DNA of 64,000 bases from Woeseia sp. (GCA_046756445.1 JBHHWI010000001.1:7348-71347); one strand, 5' to 3'; positions 52,575 to 64,000 are shown, counted from the first letter of the stretch. The notes: generated by a model from the letters alone, not told the origin. Program-made: numbers and translations.

Positions 52575-53090
52575 TTACTCTTCTATCCTTTGGCCCAGCG
52601 CCAGGTACGCCGCCTTGTAATTCGGTTCCTGTCCGATGTCGTCTATCTGCTCCCGGTGTACGACCGTGTTGTTTTCGTCGAGCACGACAACCGCTCTGGA
52701 AAACATGCCTGCAAGCGGCCCTTCCATGATTTGCACGCCATAGTTTTCGCCGAAGCCCATATGACGTATCGCTGATAATCCGACAACCCGCTTCAGTGAA
52801 TGCTTGTCACGAAACCTCGCGTGCGCAAATGGCAAATCATAGGAGATCATCAGCTCCGCGATGTCGTCGAAGTCCTTGGAATACCTGTCGAACGCGATGA
52901 CTGACGCCGCGCATACCGGCGTGTCGATGCTGGGGAAGATATTGAAAATCTTGCGCAGGCCGAGCCAGTTCGCGAGCGTGACGTCCTTCAGCTCCGTGTT
53001 TACCAGCGAGAAGTCCGGCGCCCTGCTGCCGACCGTCGGTAGCTCTCCGTGAGTCCGGTACGTCCCGCCCTGGTACCTTATCCTGGCCAT
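52575..53090 (-). CDS. tpx: thiol peroxidase (atypical 2-Cys peroxiredoxin Tpx)
   Basis: 171 aa (FPSIDTPVCAASV...). Located between gcvPA and gcvPB. Confidence 0.9.
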   Translation of the reverse strand: MARIRYQGGTYRTHGELPTVGSRAPDFSLVNTELKDVTLANWLGLRKIFNIFPSIDTPVCAASVIAFDRYSKDFDDIAELMISYDLPFAHARFRDKHSLKRVVGLSAIRHMGFGENYGVQIMEGPLAGMFSRAVVVLDENNTVVHREQIDDIGQEPNYKAAYLALGQRIEE

Positions 53091-54894: not shown

Positions 54895-55989
54895 TTACTC
54901 AAGTTCGACACAGGATTTTCCGTTGCGCACGAAAGGCGGCCGTATGATTCTTGCAGCGAGCATTTTACCCCTCACCTCGACCGTTGCCCGTTCGTAGTTT
55001 CCGGCAGGCAGCCGCGCAAGCGCGATGGATCGCTGCAGCGTCGGCGAGAAGCCGCCGCTGGTGATTTCGCCGTCGCCGATTCCCTCGACGAAAACCCGCT
55101 GGCGATTTCGCAGAACTCCTCGATCCTCCAGCAGAAGGCCCGTGAATTTTCGCCTGTCCTTATTCTCACGGAGTCTGGACAAAGCGGCCCTGCCGATGAA
55201 ATCCCGATCCTCGGGACCCCACGCAATCGTCCATCCGAGGCCGGATTCCAGCGGCGAAGTCGTCTCGTCCATGTCCGTGCCGTACAGATTCATGCCGGCC
55301 TCGAGACGCAATGTGTCGCGGGCACCGAGACCGCAGGGCGCAACCCCGGAATCGAGCAGTTGCTGCCATATTGCCTCGCTGTCGGCTGCCGGAATGACGA
55401 TCTCCCAACCGTCCTCCCCCGTATAGCCCGTGCGCGCTACGAACCGGCTTCCTGCTTCGAGCCCGTAGAACGGTTTCAAGGCGAGTGCTGCATCACGCCA
55501 TTCTTCAGGCACGACACCGGCCGCCAACTGCCGGGCGTGCGGTCCCTGCACGGCAATCATTGCCAGGTCCCCGCGCTCGTCGATGTCGACCGCACAGGCA
55601 CGCGCCTGCCGCGTGATCCAGGCAATATCCTTGTCCCGGGTCGCGGAATTGACGACCATACGATAACGGACGGGTTCCAGAGAATAGACGATCAGGTCAT
55701 CGATCACGCCACCGTCGTCGTTCAACATGCAGGTGTACAGCGCTTTGCCCCTGTCAGCCAGTCTTGCGACGTCGTTGGCCAGGAGATGACGCAGAAACTC
55801 CATCGCTTTTTCGCCGTGTATGTCGACGACAGTCATGTGCGAGACGTCGAACGCACCCGCATGATTTCGTACGGCGTGGTGTTCTTCGATTTGCGAACCA
55901 TAATGCAGCGGCATGTCCCAGCCGCCGAAGTCGACCATGCGCGCGCCCGCCTCTACATGTCTGGCATAAAGTGGCGTTTGCTGTCCCAT
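54895..55989 (-). CDS. gcvT: glycine cleavage system aminomethyltransferase T
   Basis: 364 aa ([28 protein letters not shown]...). Confidence 0.96.
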
Positions 55990-56007
55990 TCTTGCTCCCG
56001 GCGTTCA

Positions 56008-56058
56008 CAAACAAAGAAGGCGGCGGATCGAATCCCATGAACAATTCGATCTGCCGCC
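56008..56058 (-). terminator. intrinsic terminator forming the glycine riboswitch expression platform
   Basis: Minus strand: GGCGGCAGATCGAAT, a 10-nt loop, ATTCGATCCGCCGCC (15-bp stem with one non-canonical pair), followed by TTCTTTGTTTG. The 5' arm abuts the P1 3' strand of aptamer 2. Confidence 0.7.
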
Positions 56059-56240
56059 CCTCTGTCCGGTAACCTGAGAGATCGCGCCGCGTGTCTCGCC
56101 AGGCGGCTGCATTCCCCTTCGGTGGGCCAAAAGCTGCCTCTCTCCAGAGCTGATCAGGATGTTCAGTCCGTCTGCCTGAGCGTTTCCGGGCGAGTTGCGC
56201 CTTCGGCGCCCCGTGTTACCGGGGTCTCTTCTGCACACCC
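56055..56240 (-). promoter_or_regulatory. tandem glycine riboswitch (two aptamers) in the gcvT leader
   Basis: The minus strand reads ...AGAGACCCCGGTAACACGGGGCGCCGAAGGCGCAA...CTCAGGCAGACGGAC... then CTCTGGAGAGAGGCAG...CCCACCGAAGGGGAA...CTCAGGTTACCGGACAGAGG. These match the conserved cores of glycine aptamers 1 and 2. Confidence 0.85.
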
Positions 56241-56337
56241 TATGGATCAGTGGGCGCAATCATAGCCAAGTGTCTCGACAGTTGCCAGCAGCCCGCAAGC
56301 TCGTAACAATGCGGGCACAACGCGCGGGAGAATACCG

Positions 56338-58128
56338 ATGCCAATTAAGCCCCGACTTACTGTTTGCTTGATATTCCTCACAATTACATGCGTCCACGCG
56401 GCCCCGCCGGACGACTTCCATGCATTGCTCGATGAGGCCTGGGAGTGGCAACTCGTGCAATACCCTGTTTTCGCGTCATCCCTCGGCGATCGCCGTTTCA
56501 ACGACCGGTGGGGCGACTCCAGTGTCGAGGCGATCCAGGCACGCCACGATCAGCGGCAGATGTTCCTCGATCGTCTGCGCGCGATCGATCCCGCGGCATT
56601 GAGCGATACCGATCAACTCAATTACGACTTGTTTCGCCGCGAGCTACAAAACGATATCGACGGCCATCGATTCAAGTCTTATCTGATGCCGATCAACCAG
56701 CGCGGCGGCGTCCAGTCGCTCGAGACCACTGCCGAACAGCTTCGCCTGCAAACGGTAAAGGACTACGAGGACTGGCTTGCCCGAATGGCAAGAGTGGAAC
56801 ACGTCATCGAGCAGACGATGGCGCTGGCGGAGCGGGGCCGGAAGGAGGGCTACGTCTCGCCAAAAATCCTGATGGAACGTATTCCCGATCAACTGGCATT
56901 GCAGACGGTCGAAAACCCCGAAGAGAGTCCATTCTTCAAGGCATTCGAGAATATGCCTGACTCGATGTCCGAAGAAGACAAGATACGTTTGCAGAGCAAA
57001 GCGAAAGAGATCATCGATGAGTCGATCGTGCCGGCCTATCGTGATTTCAGCCGCTACTTTGCCGATACCTATTATCCCGCGGGCCGGGAAAGCATCGGCG
57101 CATCGGAGCTGCCGAACGGTGAAGCGTTTTACGAGTACCGCACGCGTCTCTTCACGACGACGCCGATGACGCCGGATGAGATTCATCGTCTGGGTCTCAA
57201 TGAAGTAAAACGCATCCGTGACGAGATGCAGCTGATTATCGACGCGCTTGAATTCGAGGGCAGCTTTGCGGATTTCCTGGCATTTCTCCGAACCGACCCG
57301 CAGTTCTATTACGAGGACCCGGACGAACTGTTCGAGGCCTACCTGGCAACCTGCAAGCGCATCGACCCCGAGCTCGTCAAGCTGTTCGGACGACTGCCGC
57401 GCATGCCGTACGGCCTGAGGCCTATTCCCGATAACATCGCGCCTGACACGACGACCGCGTACTACAGCCGTCCTGCTGCCGACGGCAGCCGCGCCGGCTA
57501 CTACTACGTCAATCTCTACAAGCCCGAAGTCAGGCCCAAGTACGAGATCGAGGTCCTGAGCGTGCACGAGGCCATGCCGGGCCACCATCTGCAAATCGCG
57601 CTCGCGCAGGAACTCGAGGGGGTGCCGAATTTCCGGCGTTTCTCGGGATTCACGGCATTCGTCGAGGGCTGGGGCCTTTACAGCGAGGCCCTCGGTCACG
57701 ACCTGGGCCTTTACAAAGATCCGTATTCGAAGTTCGGTGCCCTGACGTACGAAATGTGGCGTGCCGTTCGGCTGGTCGTCGACACGGGCATGCATTACAA
57801 AGGCTGGACACGCCAGCAGGCGATCGATTTTTTCAAAGACAACGCCGCAAAAACAGAGCTCGACATCATCAACGAGATCGATCGCTACATCGCATGGCCC
57901 GGTCAGGCTCTTGCCTACAAGATCGGGCAGCTCAAGATGCTCGACCTTCGCAAGAAAGCCGAGCAGTCGTTAGGTGACCAATTCGACATCCGCGCATTTC
58001 ATGACGAGCTGCTCGGTGCCGGCGCGATTCCGCTGGAAGTCCTCGAAACAAGGATGAATCGCTGGCTGATACGACAGATGGAAGACTCCCGCCCGATCGA
58101 TCAGACTACGGAGGCGGAGCGCCGTTGA
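56338..58128 (+). CDS. secreted DUF885-family protein (metallopeptidase-like fold)
   Basis: 596 aa with a signal peptide (LIFLTITCVHAAP) and DUF885 hallmarks, including HEAMPGHHLQ. Its 3' end overlaps the convergent ATP-grasp gene by 23 nt. Confidence 0.75.
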   Translation: MPIKPRLTVCLIFLTITCVHAAPPDDFHALLDEAWEWQLVQYPVFASSLGDRRFNDRWGDSSVEAIQARHDQRQMFLDRLRAIDPAALSDTDQLNYDLFRRELQNDIDGHRFKSYLMPINQRGGVQSLETTAEQLRLQTVKDYEDWLARMARVEHVIEQTMALAERGRKEGYVSPKILMERIPDQLALQTVENPEESPFFKAFENMPDSMSEEDKIRLQSKAKEIIDESIVPAYRDFSRYFADTYYPAGRESIGASELPNGEAFYEYRTRLFTTTPMTPDEIHRLGLNEVKRIRDEMQLIIDALEFEGSFADFLAFLRTDPQFYYEDPDELFEAYLATCKRIDPELVKLFGRLPRMPYGLRPIPDNIAPDTTTAYYSRPAADGSRAGYYYVNLYKPEVRPKYEIEVLSVHEAMPGHHLQIALAQELEGVPNFRRFSGFTAFVEGWGLYSEALGHDLGLYKDPYSKFGALTYEMWRAVRLVVDTGMHYKGWTRQQAIDFFKDNAAKTELDIINEIDRYIAWPGQALAYKIGQLKMLDLRKKAEQSLGDQFDIRAFHDELLGAGAIPLEVLETRMNRWLIRQMEDSRPIDQTTEAERR

Positions 58129-59098
58129 GCGGCAACGCCGTCTGTCGTTCCGCCGCGAACTCACGGCGGGCGAACTTGGCGCGGGCGACTGGATCGGATT
58201 CTGAATCGAAGATCTCATCGATCCGTTTCAGGCGGTGAGAGAGGCCCGCGCAGTTCGCGATCTGAATATTGAGGCCGGGTCTCGCGTTCATTTCCAGGAT
58301 CAACGGGCCGCGATCGCGATCGATGACGATATCGACGCCGAGATAGCCGAGTCCGGTAACGTCGAGTCCGCGCGCTGCCGACTGCAGGATGAAGTCCCAG
58401 TGAGGAATGTACAGACCAGCGATCAATGCACCCGTGTCCGGGTGTTCGTCGACGACGTCATTCCCGAGCACACCCGTTAATGTCTCACCCGAACTGAGAT
58501 CGACGCCGGCACCGACTGCGCCCTGATGAAGGTTTGCCTTGCCGTCAGAGGTCCTCGTCGGCAGGCGGACCATCGCCATGATCGGATAGCCGCGGTAGAC
58601 AATGACTCGGATATCGGGCACACCCTGGTAGCTGACCTCTGCGAACAGCGGGTCGAACTTGACACAATACTCGATCAGCGCCGTATCGGGGTTGCCGCTC
58701 AGGCTGTACTGCCCGCTGACGATATTCGATACATGGTGATTGAGATCGGATTCCGTCAGCAGCAGCCCGTTGATCATCCGATAACTGCCGCGTCTGCGGT
58801 AGCTCTGCCCGGCGATGACGAGGATACCGTCGCCGCCCGATCCGCGTGCAGGTTTGATGACGAAGCTTTCCCGGTCGGCGACGATGTCGGGAAAGTTGCG
58901 AATTTCCGACTGGCTGTGGATCAGCCCGTACAGCTCCGGCACCGCCATGCCGGCGTCCAGCGCCAGTCGCTTGGTCAGGACTTTGTCGTCGACCCGAGGA
59001 TAGAGTCGCCGGGGATTGAGTCTCATTATGAACTCGGCGTTGCGCTGGTTCAGCCCGAGCACGCCAGCGGTGTTCATTCTCCTGGCGAAGCCGAGCAT
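58106..59098 (-). CDS. RimK-related ATP-grasp ligase (alpha-L-glutamate ligase-like family)
   Basis: 330 aa. The N-terminus (GVLGLNQRNAEFIMRLNPRRLYPRVDDKVLTKRLA) is the RimK-like ATP-grasp N-terminal module, followed by FVIKPARGSGGDGILVI. The start lies 1 nt after the upstream stop. Confidence 0.8.
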   Translation of the reverse strand: MLGFARRMNTAGVLGLNQRNAEFIMRLNPRRLYPRVDDKVLTKRLALDAGMAVPELYGLIHSQSEIRNFPDIVADRESFVIKPARGSGGDGILVIAGQSYRRRGSYRMINGLLLTESDLNHHVSNIVSGQYSLSGNPDTALIEYCVKFDPLFAEVSYQGVPDIRVIVYRGYPIMAMVRLPTRTSDGKANLHQGAVGAGVDLSSGETLTGVLGNDVVDEHPDTGALIAGLYIPHWDFILQSAARGLDVTGLGYLGVDIVIDRDRGPLILEMNARPGLNIQIANCAGLSHRLKRIDEIFDSESDPVARAKFARREFAAERQTALPLNGAPPP

Positions 59099-59099
59099 C

Positions 59100-60620
59100 T
59101 CAGTTGCCTGCCAAAGCCTTGAACCGGCTGAGTTCGACGAGCCGGTAACCCGTGTACCGCCCCAAGAGCATCACTGCGGCGAGAATGACCAGCAGCAACT
59201 CAGGGAAATTAAATACGATGTGCTCGAGCCAATTCATGCCCATGGCGAGGTAGGCGAATATCGCGACGATGAGGCTGCCGGCGCCCGCTCGCATCGCGTC
59301 GGTCGGGCCTCGCTCTTCCCAGACGACCGACATGCGCTCGATCGTCATCGCGATGATGACCATCGGAAAGAGGGCAACGGAGAGACCGGTCTCCATCCCC
59401 AGCTTGTGCGAGACGACGCTTATCACGAGCATCAGCAGTACCACGACGATCAGGACGGCGCCAAGCCGTGGCACGAGCAATAGCCTGAGGCGCTCGAGGA
59501 AGAAGCGAATGCTCAAGCCCAGGGTCACGAGTAACGTGAACAGGATGACTCCCCAGAACAGCTGCGTCTCGCGGAAAGAAAGGGCGATCAACACAGGCAT
59601 GAATGTGCCGAAAGCATCGATGCCGACGACATTGCGAAGAAAAACCATGACCAGCGCACCGATCGGGATCATAAGCAACACGGCGTACACCGCCTGGGTC
59701 GAGATCGGCAGGCTGAACAGGGAAAAGTCGACCAGCCCGGACAGCTCTGCTGCCGCACGTTGTTCCGCAATGGCGATTGAATCGAGGTGATTCTTTTGCA
59801 CGGCAAAATTCACCTCGACGTTGCTGCCACCCTCGACCCTGACGAGCGGTTCGCTGCCGCGCCACCAGATCAGGTAACGATCCGGCAGGCTTTCTTCGCC
59901 GGTATTCGGATTGAAGTAGCGCCACCGGTCCCCGTCGTGGATCTCGAGCCACGGCAGCGGTTCGACTCGGCGCTGCTGATCCTGCAGCACGATACCGCGG
60001 ATCATCCGCGCGGGTATCCGCGCCGACGCCAGAATGGTCGTTATTGTCTGCACGAAGTGGGCCGAGCTTTCCGCTTCAGCAAAAAGCAGTTCGACATTGG
60101 CATCGGGCGACGGGTCGTTAACAAGGCGCAGTAACTCGGTTGCAAATGACGACGCATCCGCCGAGTGTTCCCGCACGTCGGAGACAATGACATTGACCGC
60201 CGTCTTGAAGGGTTCGTTGATGACAGGCGGTGGCGGGAACGGCGGTGTCGTGTCCGACTGATCGCTACCCGTATCTTCATACACGACGCGACGGTAATAG
60301 AGGGTCTGTGGGCCGTCGGAACGGCGCACGGCCCATTGCGCCTCCCGCCCACCGCTGACGTAGTTGAGGCTGAATCCGTATCCCTTCGATACGTTGTACT
60401 CGCGCAGCATGCGAAAGCCGGGCGTCAGCGTCGGAATCTGAAGGTTCGCCTTGATCGAGCCCGGCCCGCTATCGAAATGAATCGATGTCTCAACCGTCCA
60501 TACCGGAGTCTTCTGATTATCCGTGACGGGGAACCCGAGCACCTGCCACTTATACATAAAAATCGAGAGGCCGATCGTCGTGAGTATCGCGGCCAGGGCA
60601 AATACGTATCGCAAGGTCAT
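59100..60620 (-). CDS. inactive transglutaminase-like domain fused to a 7-TM module (UUP1-type membrane protein)
   Basis: 506 aa: N-terminal TM segment, an extracytoplasmic ~270-aa domain with a transglutaminase-like ...SAHFVQTITTILASARIPARMIRG (Ala where the catalytic Cys would be), then 7 predicted TM helices. 4-nt overlap with ubiI. Confidence 0.75.
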   Translation of the reverse strand: MTLRYVFALAAILTTIGLSIFMYKWQVLGFPVTDNQKTPVWTVETSIHFDSGPGSIKANLQIPTLTPGFRMLREYNVSKGYGFSLNYVSGGREAQWAVRRSDGPQTLYYRRVVYEDTGSDQSDTTPPFPPPPVINEPFKTAVNVIVSDVREHSADASSFATELLRLVNDPSPDANVELLFAEAESSAHFVQTITTILASARIPARMIRGIVLQDQQRRVEPLPWLEIHDGDRWRYFNPNTGEESLPDRYLIWWRGSEPLVRVEGGSNVEVNFAVQKNHLDSIAIAEQRAAAELSGLVDFSLFSLPISTQAVYAVLLMIPIGALVMVFLRNVVGIDAFGTFMPVLIALSFRETQLFWGVILFTLLVTLGLSIRFFLERLRLLLVPRLGAVLIVVVLLMLVISVVSHKLGMETGLSVALFPMVIIAMTIERMSVVWEERGPTDAMRAGAGSLIVAIFAYLAMGMNWLEHIVFNFPELLLVILAAVMLLGRYTGYRLVELSRFKALAGN

Positions 60621-61825
60621 CGCGTATTAATCCCGAGGGCTACCTGCACGGCGTGTTCCCGAATCGGCCCGCTTCTGTTGAAGAGCCGCATGCCGCTGCC
60701 GCGTAGCTTCTCGATTGAAGACGACCCGGATGAGAAGAGGCGGTTCAGGCTGTCGACGAAGTAAAGCATCGTCGAGTTGGCGCCCTTGCGGGCGCGTTCA
60801 TAGCGACGCAACACGGGCAGGTCTCCCGGATGCTGCCCCTCACCGATGGCACTGTCGATGACGCTGACCAGTTTCGCCGCATCGGCCAGGCCGAGGTTTG
60901 CGCCCTGTCCCGCAAGCGGATGAACCGCGTGCGCCGCGTCGCCGATGAGCGCGAGACCGGGGCACGCGTACTTGCTCGCGTGCTGCGCCTTGAGTGGGAA
61001 AGACCCCCGCGGACCTTCGGGCGTGAGCTGCCCGAGCACAAAGTCGCTTGCTTCGCTCAGCATCACCGACAATTCGTCGTCTGACGCCGCCATCGCAAGC
61101 TCTGCCTGTCGCGGGCTCGTCGACCACACGACGGACACCCGACCGTCGGCAAGCGGCAACAGGGCAACGGGGCCGCTGCGCAGGAAGCGTTGCCACGCCG
61201 TGTGCCGGTGACAGAATTCCGGCCGCAGGTGAGTCACGAATGCGGTCTGTGGATAGCGCCAGGCATCGACGGAGATATTGGCGCACCGGCGAACAACTGA
61301 GCCCGCCCCGTCGGCGCCGATGACGAGGTCTGCGGTGATACCCCTGCCAGTCTCGACATCGACGGAGAACCGATCCTTCGATTTCATCATTGACTTGATC
61401 GGCGTTTCGAATAGCACCGACTGATCGACCAAGTCGAGCTTTCCGAGCAGCGCGTGCCGTATCAGCTTGTTCTCGACGATGAAGCCGAGCTCGGCAACGG
61501 CAAATTCGGCTGCATCGAAGTGAAGCGTGTCGGGCCCATCGGCGCAGCCGCTCGAATCCCACACCCGCATGCCGCGATACGGGCAGGCACGTCCATTCTC
61601 GATCGCCTTCCAGACACCGATCGATGCAAGAATATCTGTCGAACCCGATGCAATTGCGGACACACGGAGTGAAATGTCGCTCGATATATCGAAATCCGGT
61701 CTCGTGCCTGCGTCAATGACCGTGACGTTCATCTGCGCCCGGTGTTTGCTATGCGCCAGCAGTGCAGCGGCCGTCAGTCCGGTAATGCCGGCGCCGACGA
61801 CGACGATGTCGTATGTGCGGTTCAC
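60617..61825 (-). CDS. ubiI: UbiH/UbiF/VisC/COQ6-family ubiquinone biosynthesis hydroxylase
   Basis: 402 aa with FAD motifs (DIVVVGAGITGLTAA, LIGDAAHAVHPLAGQGANLG). Positioned after ubiH, as visC is in E. coli. Confidence 0.88.
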   Translation of the reverse strand: MNRTYDIVVVGAGITGLTAAALLAHSKHRAQMNVTVIDAGTRPDFDISSDISLRVSAIASGSTDILASIGVWKAIENGRACPYRGMRVWDSSGCADGPDTLHFDAAEFAVAELGFIVENKLIRHALLGKLDLVDQSVLFETPIKSMMKSKDRFSVDVETGRGITADLVIGADGAGSVVRRCANISVDAWRYPQTAFVTHLRPEFCHRHTAWQRFLRSGPVALLPLADGRVSVVWSTSPRQAELAMAASDDELSVMLSEASDFVLGQLTPEGPRGSFPLKAQHASKYACPGLALIGDAAHAVHPLAGQGANLGLADAAKLVSVIDSAIGEGQHPGDLPVLRRYERARKGANSTMLYFVDSLNRLFSSGSSSIEKLRGSGMRLFNRSGPIREHAVQVALGINTR

Positions 61826-63066
61826 TCGAGCGGCACCCCGCGGGATAGCCTGGGCAGCCGTCCGGCGAGACCCATCATGTGCCTGGCGAAAAGCGATCGG
61901 ACCCCGGGCACGAGATCGAAGCCCAGCATCCCCAGGTTTCTAAGCAGCCCTACCGGCGCAATCGCGCTACCGAACAGGCGAACGATGCCGTCGGTGATGC
62001 GTACGAGCTTGCTCTGATCGGCGCGCCGCCAGTCGGCGAATCTGTCCAGGATGGCCGCGTGGCCGGCGTCGAAAACAGCACCCGGCCCGGGCCGTGCGTC
62101 GGCAATGCAATCCGACAAGGCTGCGACATCCCGTAATCCGAGATTGAATCCCTGGGCGGCAACCGGGTGCAGTCCGTGCGCGGCATTGCCGACCAGTACG
62201 CATCGCCCCGCCACGAGCCTGCTTGCCTTGCTCAGGGCCAGCGGATATGCAGCCCTGCGCCCGACCCGCGAGAATCTACCCAGGCGCCAACCGAAAACCT
62301 CCTGTAACTCCCTGGTGAATGCCTCGTCGGTGAGTTGCATGACTTCGTCTGCTTTGGCAGGCGGCAAAGTCCATACGAACGCCGCGCGGTCGTCGGCCAC
62401 CGGCAGCAACGCGAGTGGGCCGCTGTCGGTGAATCGCTCGAAAGCGCGATTCATCGGCGGTATCTCCGGGCGCAAATTGCCGACCACGGCGAGTTGGTCG
62501 TAATCGACGCGCGAAGCGCCGATTCCGGCCAGTTTACGGACTATCGAGTTTGCCCCGTCGGCAGCGACCAGCAGTTTGCAGTTCAGACCTTGTGATTTAC
62601 CGTCCGGCTTCTCGATGCAGACGGTCGTCAAGTCCTTGCCGATGCTGACGGCAGTCACTTTGCCGGGGCAAATTGTCTCGAGTCCGGCGGCCTCGTCCAG
62701 CGCCTCGCGGAGTACTCCGCCGAGTGCGTGATTGATGACGACATAGCCCAATGCATCGACACCCTGTTGATCCGCATCGATATGTGAAAACCCGAAGCGT
62801 CCTTTATCGGACACGTGAATGCTCGTGATCGGCGTCGAGCAATCTTCGATCTTCGGCCAAATGCCGATCGCAACGAACATCCGCTGGCTGCTGCGCGACA
62901 AGGCCGTCGAGCGGTCGTCGAAACTCGGCTGACTTGCGTCACCGCGCGCGACGGCCTCGACCACGGCAATACGCAGACCGAGCGGCGTCAGCGCCACGGC
63001 CAGGCTGCTGCCGATCATGCCGCCACCGGCAATGACGATGTCGTAGTCGTGTGTTTCCCGGGTCAT
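61822..63066 (-). CDS. ubiH: 2-octaprenyl-6-methoxyphenol hydroxylase
   Basis: 414 aa (DIVIAGGGMIGSSLA, LVGNAAHGLHPVAAQGFNLG). pepP-ubiH-ubiI order. Confidence 0.88.
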   Translation of the reverse strand: MTRETHDYDIVIAGGGMIGSSLAVALTPLGLRIAVVEAVARGDASQPSFDDRSTALSRSSQRMFVAIGIWPKIEDCSTPITSIHVSDKGRFGFSHIDADQQGVDALGYVVINHALGGVLREALDEAAGLETICPGKVTAVSIGKDLTTVCIEKPDGKSQGLNCKLLVAADGANSIVRKLAGIGASRVDYDQLAVVGNLRPEIPPMNRAFERFTDSGPLALLPVADDRAAFVWTLPPAKADEVMQLTDEAFTRELQEVFGWRLGRFSRVGRRAAYPLALSKASRLVAGRCVLVGNAAHGLHPVAAQGFNLGLRDVAALSDCIADARPGPGAVFDAGHAAILDRFADWRRADQSKLVRITDGIVRLFGSAIAPVGLLRNLGMLGFDLVPGVRSLFARHMMGLAGRLPRLSRGVPLE

Positions 63067-64000
63067 GCAGCCATCAGATTCTCGATATCATCCGCTTCTT
63101 TTACGAGGCCCTTGCTGAGGACGTCCGGACCCGTGTTGGTTACGGCGACATCGTCTTCGATGCGAACGCCTATATTACGCCAGCGGGCGGGTACTTTGCG
63201 GCTTGCCGGGATGTAAATTCCCGGCTCGACGGTCATGACCATGCCGGACTCGAGCAGGCGCCATTCGTCACCGACCTTGTAATCACCTACGTCATGCACG
63301 TCCATGCCGATCCAGTGCCCGGTTCGATGCATGAAGAACTGCCGGTAAGCGCCCTCGCGCAGGAGTCGGGGCAATGAGCCTTCGAGGAGCCCGTTCTTCC
63401 TGAGCCCGCGGGTAATCACCCGCACCGCCGCATCATGCGGGTCATTCCAGTGATTGCCCTTGCAGGTCTTTCCTATGGCGGCCAGCTGCGCTTCGAGGAC
63501 AATCTCGTAGATCTCCCTTTGCGCAGGTTCAAAGCGCCCGCTAACGGGGACCGTTCGGGTCACGTCAGACGCGTAGTAGTCATACTCGCAGCCTGCATCG
63601 ATCAGCAGCAACTCCCCGTTCGCGAGCCGCGCATTGTTGTCGATGTAGTGCAGCGTGCAGGCATTGATGCCCGTGCCTACGATGGGCGGGTAGGAGATCG
63701 TCGCACCCCGGCGGCGAAACTCGTGGACGTACTCGGCCTCGACCTCGTACTCGAACATGCCCGGCTGAACGATTGCGATCGCTCTTTTGTGCGCGCTGAC
63801 AGTAATCTTGGCGGACCTGCGCATCGCGGAGATCTCTGCGCGACTCTTGTACAGGCGCATGTCGTGCAGAATGTGATCCAGTGCGACGAACTCATCCGGC
63901 GTGTGGATGCCTTTCGCGTTTCGCGAGCGAAGTGACCTTACCCAATCGGCCATGCGGCGATCGAAATCAGTGTATGCGCCCATCGTGTAATAGACGCTGC
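63063..64000 (-). CDS. pepP: Xaa-Pro aminopeptidase, C-terminal catalytic part (gene continues beyond the window end)
   Basis: Pita-bread fold motifs (DAGCEYDYYASDVTRT, HRTGHWIGMDVHD, TVEPGIY, RIEDDV). The frame stays open through nt 64000. Confidence 0.92.
   Translation of the reverse strand, partial: SVYYTMGAYTDFDRRMADWVRSLRSRNAKGIHTPDEFVALDHILHDMRLYKSRAEISAMRRSAKITVSAHKRAIAIVQPGMFEYEVEAEYVHEFRRRGATISYPPIVGTGINACTLHYIDNNARLANGELLLIDAGCEYDYYASDVTRTVPVSGRFEPAQREIYEIVLEAQLAAIGKTCKGNHWNDPHDAAVRVITRGLRKNGLLEGSLPRLLREGAYRQFFMHRTGHWIGMDVHDVGDYKVGDEWRLLESGMVMTVEPGIYIPASRKVPARWRNIGVRIEDDVAVTNTGPDVLSKGLVKEADDIENLMAA

Follow-up and report, generated by a model that had tools for sequence, protein, structure and literature searches.

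A protease-less variant of the Rlo envelope system chained to ubiquinone hydroxylase genes in Woeseia

How does a gene pair for an ATP-grasp ligase and a transglutaminase-like membrane protein that contains no cysteine come to be chained to ubiquinone hydroxylase genes, and what might it do there when the protease that usually accompanies it is missing? The question is raised by a stretch of 64,000 nucleotides from a Woeseia sp. genome (GCA_046756445.1, JBHHWI010000001.1:7348-71347; hereafter the window, with positions counted from its first letter), in which the genes for a 506-amino-acid (aa) membrane protein (59100-60620, minus strand) and a 330-aa ATP-grasp protein (58106-59098, minus strand) follow the chain pepP-ubiH-ubiI and meet a convergent gene of the DUF885 family. 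The genome (G000 in our collection) belongs to the Woeseiaceae, a marine-sediment lineage, and is 95.7% complete. An earlier note on this DNA had described the pair as uncharacterised and functionally undescribed, with no experimental function. The first description does not hold, as the two genes are the rloB-rloC core of the known rloABC operon; the second is outdated by the genetics of that operon in Pseudomonas aeruginosa (PMC12239564) and by a Shewanella vesicle mutant (PMC12096838). We propose that the locus contains the Rlo core pair, that it owes its present position to a history of rloA loss, that the pair acts through the mechanism outlined below, and that the DUF885 gene is independent of it; to this joint reading we assign a probability of roughly 0.75.

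The two proteins and their known counterparts

A Pfam profile search supports the domain identities that had been proposed for the 506-aa protein, with matches to PF14400 (E 1.3e-44) and PF14402 (E 1.6e-104). Its top NCBIfam match is NF052267 (inact_TG_RloB, 'osmotic stress tolerance membrane protein RloB'; E 3.9e-150), in an alignment that is full length, covering residues 8-503 of the protein and positions 10-505 of the 508 in the model. An AlphaFold2 structure model based on 79 homologues, with a mean predicted local distance difference test score (pLDDT) of 84.9, consists of a transmembrane helix at residues 3-28, a periplasmic beta-sandwich at 37-115, an inactive transglutaminase-like alpha/beta domain at 138-280 and a seven-transmembrane (7TM) helical membrane bundle at 306-503. 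When the model was compared with the PDB using Foldseek, the soluble part had its best match in 3isr (E 3.6e-9), a putative cysteine protease of the transglutaminase-like type, and weaker matches in true transglutaminases. The 7TM half (window 59100-59705) gave no significant PDB fold match in the same search and thus no structural analogy to a transporter or an enzyme; judging from the model, this fold seems to have no solved counterpart so far.

No cysteine is present among the 506 residues, a property shared by 64 of 103 homologues, and the protein therefore cannot be a cysteine transglutaminase; it lacks the Cys-His-Asp triad of active transglutaminase-like cysteine peptidases. An alanine had been thought to replace the catalytic cysteine within the segment SSAHF (residues 185-189), where that cysteine would sit. 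The loss of the nucleophile stands, whereas the exact position of the alanine does not, as this segment is not conserved among homologues and the catalytic-equivalent residue can be placed only to within about one residue. The 79 homologues have 54 residues in common without exception, and 34 of these lie in the 7TM part (residues 304-500), including the charged residues R329, R372, R385, E428, E435, E436, R493 and R499.

The 330-aa protein matches PF14397 (E 1.6e-87) and exceeds the cut-off of TIGR02291 (434.6 against 314.2 bits), in agreement with its previous assignment to the ATP-grasp proteins, and on this basis it is a predicted cytoplasmic, RimK-related ATP-grasp ligase of the alpha-L-glutamate ligase-like type. 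The hallmark residues of the fold are in place, K82 in the motif VIKPxxGSGG and E269, N271 and R273 in LEMNARPG, and all four are invariant among 50 RloC homologues. Its relationship to RimK is, by profile and structure comparison, a distant one only: the protein remains under the cut-offs of the RimK families (TIGR00768, 48.9 against 143.4 bits; PRK10446, 22.3 against 331) and has weak C-terminal matches, of 30-40 residues, to the RimK structures 7qys, 5zct and 4iwx.

The rloABC operon of P. aeruginosa PA14 encodes a secreted retropepsin-like protease (RloA, PA14_41690), an inner-membrane inactive-transglutaminase/7TM protein (RloB, PA14_41710) and a cytoplasmic ATP-grasp protein (RloC, PA14_41730) (Lormand et al., mBio 2025, PMC12239564). 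In vitro, RloA cuts runs of eight or ten glutamates, and a mutant without all three RloA paralogs does not grow in low-salt medium and is also defective in biofilm formation, beta-lactam tolerance and cell shape; deletion of either rloB or rloC rescues low-salt growth of the RloA-null strain fully and the other defects partly, and RloB and RloC single mutants show phenotypes of their own (PMC12239564). In Shewanella vesiculosa HM13, disruption of hm2192, which encodes an inactive transglutaminase-7TM protein, results in more membrane vesicles and an altered uniformity of their size (PMC12096838); compared by annotation alone, that gene has the same architecture as the Woeseia rloB homologue and is linked there to an envelope phenotype. 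A literature search returned nothing later on the Rlo system than these two lines of work.

The Woeseia pair is like rloABC of P. aeruginosa in its full-length match to NF052267, in passing the TIGR02291 threshold and in having rloC directly after rloB. It differs in that the operon has no rloA and no protease of the PF05618 family was found in the genome, in that the pair is appended to pepP-ubiH-ubiI through an ATGA overlap whereas the Pseudomonas genes form a three-gene operon of their own, and in that it comes from a marine-sediment member of the Woeseiaceae. It is, in short, a protease-less variant of the known Rlo envelope system, from which the RloA feature of rloABC is absent. A second point of reference is the RimK/RimB system of S6 polyglutamylation, with which it has in common a RimK-related ATP-grasp protein and, through RloA, the protease family PF05618 to which RimB also belongs; however, RloC is far under the RimK cut-off, a membrane partner is present, and neither RimK (no hit over cut-off) nor RimB was found in this genome. 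A neighbourhood of ATP-grasp, inactive-transglutaminase/7TM and retropepsin-like genes was reportedly predicted by Iyer, Abhiman, Burroughs and Aravind in 2009 (Mol Biosyst 5:1636, as cited in PMC12096838), the prediction to which the earlier note refers; compared by way of that citation, the same domain pair occurs here and the protease member is missing.

The ubiI junction and the loss of rloA

Read base by base, the stop codon of ubiI and the start codon of rloB share the tetranucleotide ATGA at 60617-60620, and a single base, 59099, separates the TGA of rloB from the ATG of rloC. The origin of this arrangement was explored by annotating loci from relatives (27) and from a species-representative genome collection (80), the survey comprising 103 loci. 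The closest named loci of the collection are from Woeseiaceae metagenome-assembled genomes (MAGs). The 40 of the 80 collection loci in which RloB is at least 53% identical are all located between (ubiH-)ubiI or pepP and gcvT, with rloA in none of the 40; among the 40 more distant loci, which include Methylococcus, Thioalkalivibrio, Guyparkeria, Nitrosomonas and Oceanococcus, 34 have a canonical rloA-rloB(-rloC) order away from ubiI. Every ubiI-adjacent locus of the survey falls in one clade. The linkage to ubiI thus recurs within a single clade of 60 rows; the suggested tie between the DUF885 gene and rloBC does not hold, as that gene follows gcvT (see below).

In a tree of RloB and RloC, the ubiI-site loci form this 60-row clade with a Shimodaira-Hasegawa-like approximate likelihood ratio test (SH-aLRT) support of 98, and its members are Woeseiaceae, Steroidobacter and allied gammaproteobacterial MAGs. 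Synteny distinguishes 52 ubiI-adjacent loci without rloA from three others, in genomes of the same order (L050, L053 and L054), that have the complete series pepP-ubiH-ubiI-rloA-rloB-rloC. These three rloA-bearing loci are positioned near the base of the clade, and within it a Woeseiaceae clade of 43 rows (support 100) has rloA in none. The most likely history is that an ancestral pepP-ubiH-ubiI-rloA-rloB-rloC cluster next to gcvTHP lost rloA, which brought rloB against ubiI, and that in this genus the ubiI-rloB spacer then shrank to the ATGA overlap. The tight chaining of rloB to ubiI is accordingly most readily understood as the trace that an rloA deletion left behind. As for the number of such losses, the free tree needs several, and a single loss is not rejected (approximately unbiased test, p = 0.31).

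The distance from the ubiI stop to the rloB start in the 52 loci without rloA has a median of 20 nucleotides (nt), with 10 overlaps, 20 spacers of 0-30 nt, 13 of 31-100 nt and nine of more than 100 nt, two of the last containing an inserted gene. The congener closest to this genome has the ATGA overlap too, and it turns up again in a small number of further subclades. The co-directional pepP-ubi-rlo chain is real and old within the clade, and the short spacers make co-transcription of rloBC with the ubi genes likely in most of its members; scans for consensus promoters and terminators gave counts equal to the shuffled expectation and were uninformative.

Such a chain could also mean, beyond shared transcription, that what RloBC makes is functionally tied to the synthesis of respiratory quinones or to the energetics of the membrane, an explanation that we regard as unlikely. 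It draws on the co-directional adjacency to ubiI being kept through the 60-row clade, on spacers that do not exceed 30 nt in 30 of 52 loci, with overlaps in several subclades, and on Guyparkeria and a Halothiobacillaceae MAG, where rloABC is located about 5.6 kb from pepP-ubiH-ubiI. Conservation of gene order among kin is, however, expected from descent alone, and none of the 29 rloABC loci outside the clade with both flanks known is adjacent to ubiI. The operon of P. aeruginosa is presumably not ubiI-adjacent either. Within the clade, moreover, the spacer exceeds 100 nt in 9 of 52 loci, and Steroidobacter has an acyl-CoA-dehydrogenase-like gene inserted at this point. Three genomes of relatives (G005, G021 and G040) keep both pepP-ubiH-ubiI and the DUF885-gcvT pair without rloBC. 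Shared descent combined with the deletion of rloA accounts for the adjacency to ubiI, and since a tight ubiI-ATGA-rloB chain can arise simply by deletion of an intervening gene, caution is needed in deriving function from translational coupling alone.

Some details of these loci may be recorded here. In the Guyparkeria and Halothiobacillaceae loci (L108, L114 and L120) the canonical rloABC and pepP-ubiH-ubiI are oppositely oriented, a loose association in a different order. In the three genomes without rloBC (L151 in G005, L150 in G021 and L155 in G040), 1.6-3.7 kb of other sequence lies between pepP-ubiH-ubiI and DUF885-gcvT.

The missing protease and the DUF885 neighbour

The absence of the usual retropepsin-like protease, which had been noted at the locus, turns out to be genome-wide. 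PF05618, the family of RloA and RimB, has no match in this genome or in four congeners, and a hidden Markov model (HMM) trained on RloA/RimB proteins of relatives (19 sequences) and applied unfiltered to the six-frame translation of the genome gave a best E-value of 0.96. The search is sensitive, since PF05618 does score in 20 of 41 relatives. Among relatives, two complete chromosomes (G043 and G045), and likewise a Steroidobacter genome of 7.1 Mb, contain rloBC and have no PF05618 match. Where family members do have PF05618 genes, these are unlinked to rloBC, encode no signal peptide and adjoin a RimK-like or an AstE/AspA-like gene, which indicates that they are RimB-like and cytoplasmic. In two complete Woeseiaceae chromosomes (L148:1471-2942 and L149:473-1935), the sole PF05618 gene, without a signal peptide, overlaps or abuts a gene for a product of 333-339 aa that by eye is AstE/AspA-like (succinylglutamate desuccinylase/aspartoacylase) and not RimK. 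In Steroidobacter, the 1.75 kb that separate ubiI from rloB contain no protease gene but the acyl-CoA-dehydrogenase-like gene; its 561-aa product (L093:8319-10004) was identified by eye, and the same insertion in L095 is suggested by a similar gap.

The gene that faces the pair on the opposite strand (56338-58128, plus strand, from the six-frame list of open reading frames (ORFs)) encodes a 596-aa protein with a full-length DUF885 domain (PF05960, E 4.1e-182, 607.9 bits, residues 43-573) that matches PDB 3o0y at 1.5e-82. Its N-terminus, MPIKPRLTVCLIFLTITCVHA, is signal-peptide-like. The motif at residues 410-417 reads HEAMPGHH, that is HExxPGHH and not the HExxGHH given in the earlier note, and its spacing differs from the canonical HExxH. 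Pfam, as cited in PMC12572635, counts the family among the MA clan of zinc peptidases; its structures come from structural genomics only (3o0y, 3iuk and 3u24), and a literature search on DUF885 found, in the library covered, no functional work and no reported activity. The gene is convergent on rloC and divergent from gcvT, and reading the two stop codons base by base (DUF885, 58126-58128; rloC, 58106-58108) establishes the convergent overlap of 23 nt with the ATP-grasp gene that had been described.

It had been suggested that this secreted metallopeptidase-like protein took over the role of the missing RloA. The proposal has some appeal, as the protein is of a secreted type and belongs to a zinc-peptidase clan, the gene adjoins rloC as a fixed feature of a 31-row Woeseiaceae subclade (and also in G039), and no locus visibly carrying rloA has DUF885 on the same stretch. 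Its distribution nevertheless makes the substitution very improbable and largely refutes it. An ortholog with 56-76% identity stands divergently beside gcvT in the three genomes without rloB named above (G005, G021 and G040), another is present in G037, from which rloB is likewise absent, and orthologs are also found beside gcvT in the rloA-positive G028 and in G018, a genome whose divergent rloABC is located elsewhere. Conversely, six protease-less genomes with rloBC (G006, G020, G017, G014, G012 and G025) have only DUF885 paralogs of 36-43% identity, and the space between rloC and gcvT is occupied there by unrelated genes or by nothing. In at least five genomes inserts of 3.4-6 kb part rloC from the DUF885 gene, which stays beside gcvT; the family is multi-copy, with four paralogs in G000; and the loss of rloA spans far more of the clade than the subclade in which DUF885 is adjacent. 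The DUF885 ortholog is thus tied to gcvT, persists without rloBC and is absent from several protease-less genomes that have rloBC. Judged by gene order, the gene is the neighbour of gcvT and stands outside the Rlo module, as a predicted independent transcription unit whose putative promoter region is common with that of the riboswitch leader.

The inserts between rloC and DUF885 occur in L037, L041, L073, L079 and L100, and those of L037 and L041 contain a similar gene set, with products of about 137, 345 and 427 aa. At L099:10093-11991 (minus strand) the convergent site between rloC and gcvT is taken by a remote DUF885 paralog (32% identity), which has HGAPGRH in place of HEAMPGHH, with the glutamate lost. 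In relatives lacking DUF885 at this site, the 1.7-2.3 kb from rloC to gcvT contain a phenylalanine hydroxylase gene with an Lrp-type regulator, or a LOG-like gene with ispG, and no divergent DUF885 gene.

Selection, proposed function and the surrounding genes

Ratios of nonsynonymous to synonymous substitution rates (dN/dS), calculated for genes of the window against two congeners, are 0.054 and 0.058 for RloB and 0.078 and 0.088 for RloC, compared with 0.050 and 0.064 for PepP, 0.21 and 0.12 for UbiI, and 0.22 and 0.15 for UbiH. Purifying selection on RloB and RloC is strong, and the pair ranks among the most tightly constrained genes of the locus. With one of three canonical components gone, rloBC might be seen as a decaying and functionless remnant left by the loss of rloA. 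The selection data refute this, and we consider it scarcely credible: the rloB and rloC frames are intact in about 100 loci, the dN/dS of 0.05-0.09 is under that of the neighbouring ubi genes, and the ATP-grasp residues of RloC are invariant. Retention of rloBC under strong selection with no RloA/RimB-type protease detected makes a protease-independent role plausible.

By analogy with the biochemistry of RimK/RimB and with the epistasis in P. aeruginosa, we propose that RloC, in the cytoplasm and at the expense of ATP, would attach glutamate-type residues to an acceptor, either a peptide or a component bound to the envelope, and that RloB would pass or present the RloC product at the inner membrane by means of two parts, the 7TM domain with its conserved charges and the transglutaminase-like domain, which would act in the periplasm as a non-catalytic binding module. 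Where the system is canonical, this product would be trimmed in the periplasm by RloA; here it may be left untrimmed, as the functional end form, or be handled by an unrelated peptidase.

The first of these outcomes is a tentative possibility. As rloBC is constrained across a clade in which many genomes have no retropepsin, the RloBC product, for instance a polyanionic peptide in the periplasm or attached to the membrane, would be a functional end-product and not a trimming intermediate, and fusion to pepP-ubiH-ubiI would provide constitutive synthesis. If true, this would overturn the simple reading of the Pseudomonas genetics in which the ligase makes what the protease must remove, and the clade would be a natural setting, free of the protease, in which to identify the product of RloC.

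The second outcome, in which a non-homologous periplasmic peptidase encoded elsewhere does the work of RloA and the pairing of synthesis with trimming still operates, seems to us possible but rather doubtful. The genetics in P. aeruginosa imply that whatever RloBC makes does harm at low osmolarity if left untrimmed, yet rloBC is strongly conserved here without PF05618. Steroidobacter, a genus of soil and freshwater, is also without PF05618, so that the stable osmolarity of a marine habitat is by itself an insufficient explanation. On the other hand, no candidate peptidase was identified and nothing at the locus co-varies with the loss of rloA, and the phenotypes of RloB and RloC single mutants in P. 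aeruginosa make a protease-independent role plausible.

Several points weigh against the joint reading, that of an rloB-rloC core with a history of rloA loss, the proposed mechanism and an independent DUF885 gene. The RloB homologue reaches 500.9 bits with NF052267, under the cut-off of 900 of that narrow, 'exception'-type family. RloB and RloC have no known biochemical activity, and both the substrate of the ligase and the exporting or presenting role of RloB are proposed here by analogy. No decayed relic of rloA was detected in eleven ubiI-rloB spacers (best tblastn E 0.057, best HMM E 1.6), so that the deletion is deduced from the phylogeny and not seen directly, and with a weakly supported tree backbone an independent, later insertion of rloA into the three basal loci is formally possible. 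The genome being 95.7% complete, an absence in it alone is not absolute, although the complete relatives support it. Finally, loss of all RloA in the presence of RloBC is deleterious in P. aeruginosa (PMC12239564), which makes a protease-less state surprising unless it is compensated.

In P. aeruginosa the Rlo system has a bearing on how cells tolerate osmotic stress and antibiotics, on their shape and on biofilm formation. In protease-less lineages, which include cultured Woeseia and Steroidobacter, the untrimmed product might accumulate and be identified, and the variant therefore bears on what RloBC makes and on whether trimming is needed. The evidence is comparative, the bolder suggestions of the earlier note are not borne out, and as a variant of a system already known the locus is of modest interest.

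The remaining genes of the locus follow the order that had been described; genes, strands and coordinates were reproduced exactly by the six-frame ORF list, and three junctions, the two of rloB and the convergent overlap, were read directly. On the minus strand, the chain begins with pepP (Xaa-Pro aminopeptidase, M24; 63063-64000, PF00557 at 1.8e-64), the reading frame of which is open at the window end, and continues with ubiH (2-octaprenyl-6-methoxyphenyl hydroxylase; 61822-63066), which exceeds the cut-offs of NF004356 (455.2 against 384 bits) and TIGR01984 (420.3 against 392.2). The third gene, at 60617-61825, encodes a flavin adenine dinucleotide (FAD) hydroxylase of the UbiH/UbiF/VisC/COQ6 family. 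Overlaps of 4 nt at pepP/ubiH and ubiH/ubiI follow from the ORF coordinates. The designation of the third gene as ubiI is sound at the level of the family, the protein passing the TIGR01988 subfamily cut-off (391.8 against 224.65 bits), and not at that of the UbiI equivalog, as it remains under the NCBIfam equivalog cut-offs of PRK08850 (293 against 633 bits) and PRK08013 (278.6 against 620); 'ubiI' is therefore a name by position.

On the other side of the pair, the gcvT leader that had been recognized contains a glycine riboswitch aptamer (56154-56243, minus strand; Rfam RF00504, 61.1 bits, E 3.6e-12), which forms the downstream boundary of the insertion site and is the only glycine aptamer at the Rfam gathering score in the stretch 55800-56500. 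It precedes gcvT (54895-55989, minus strand; PF01571 at 3.1e-89), the first gene of the glycine cleavage operon. The annotated record of Escherichia coli K-12 has the order pepP-ubiH-ubiI-(yqfI)-gcvT-gcvH-gcvP, consistent with the view that the Woeseia genes occupy an insertion point in a conserved neighbourhood. Further along, a tpx-like peroxiredoxin gene (52575-53090, minus strand) is inserted between gcvPA and gcvPB; this insertion is kept in most of the surveyed Woeseiaceae loci and is absent from Steroidobacter and several other families.

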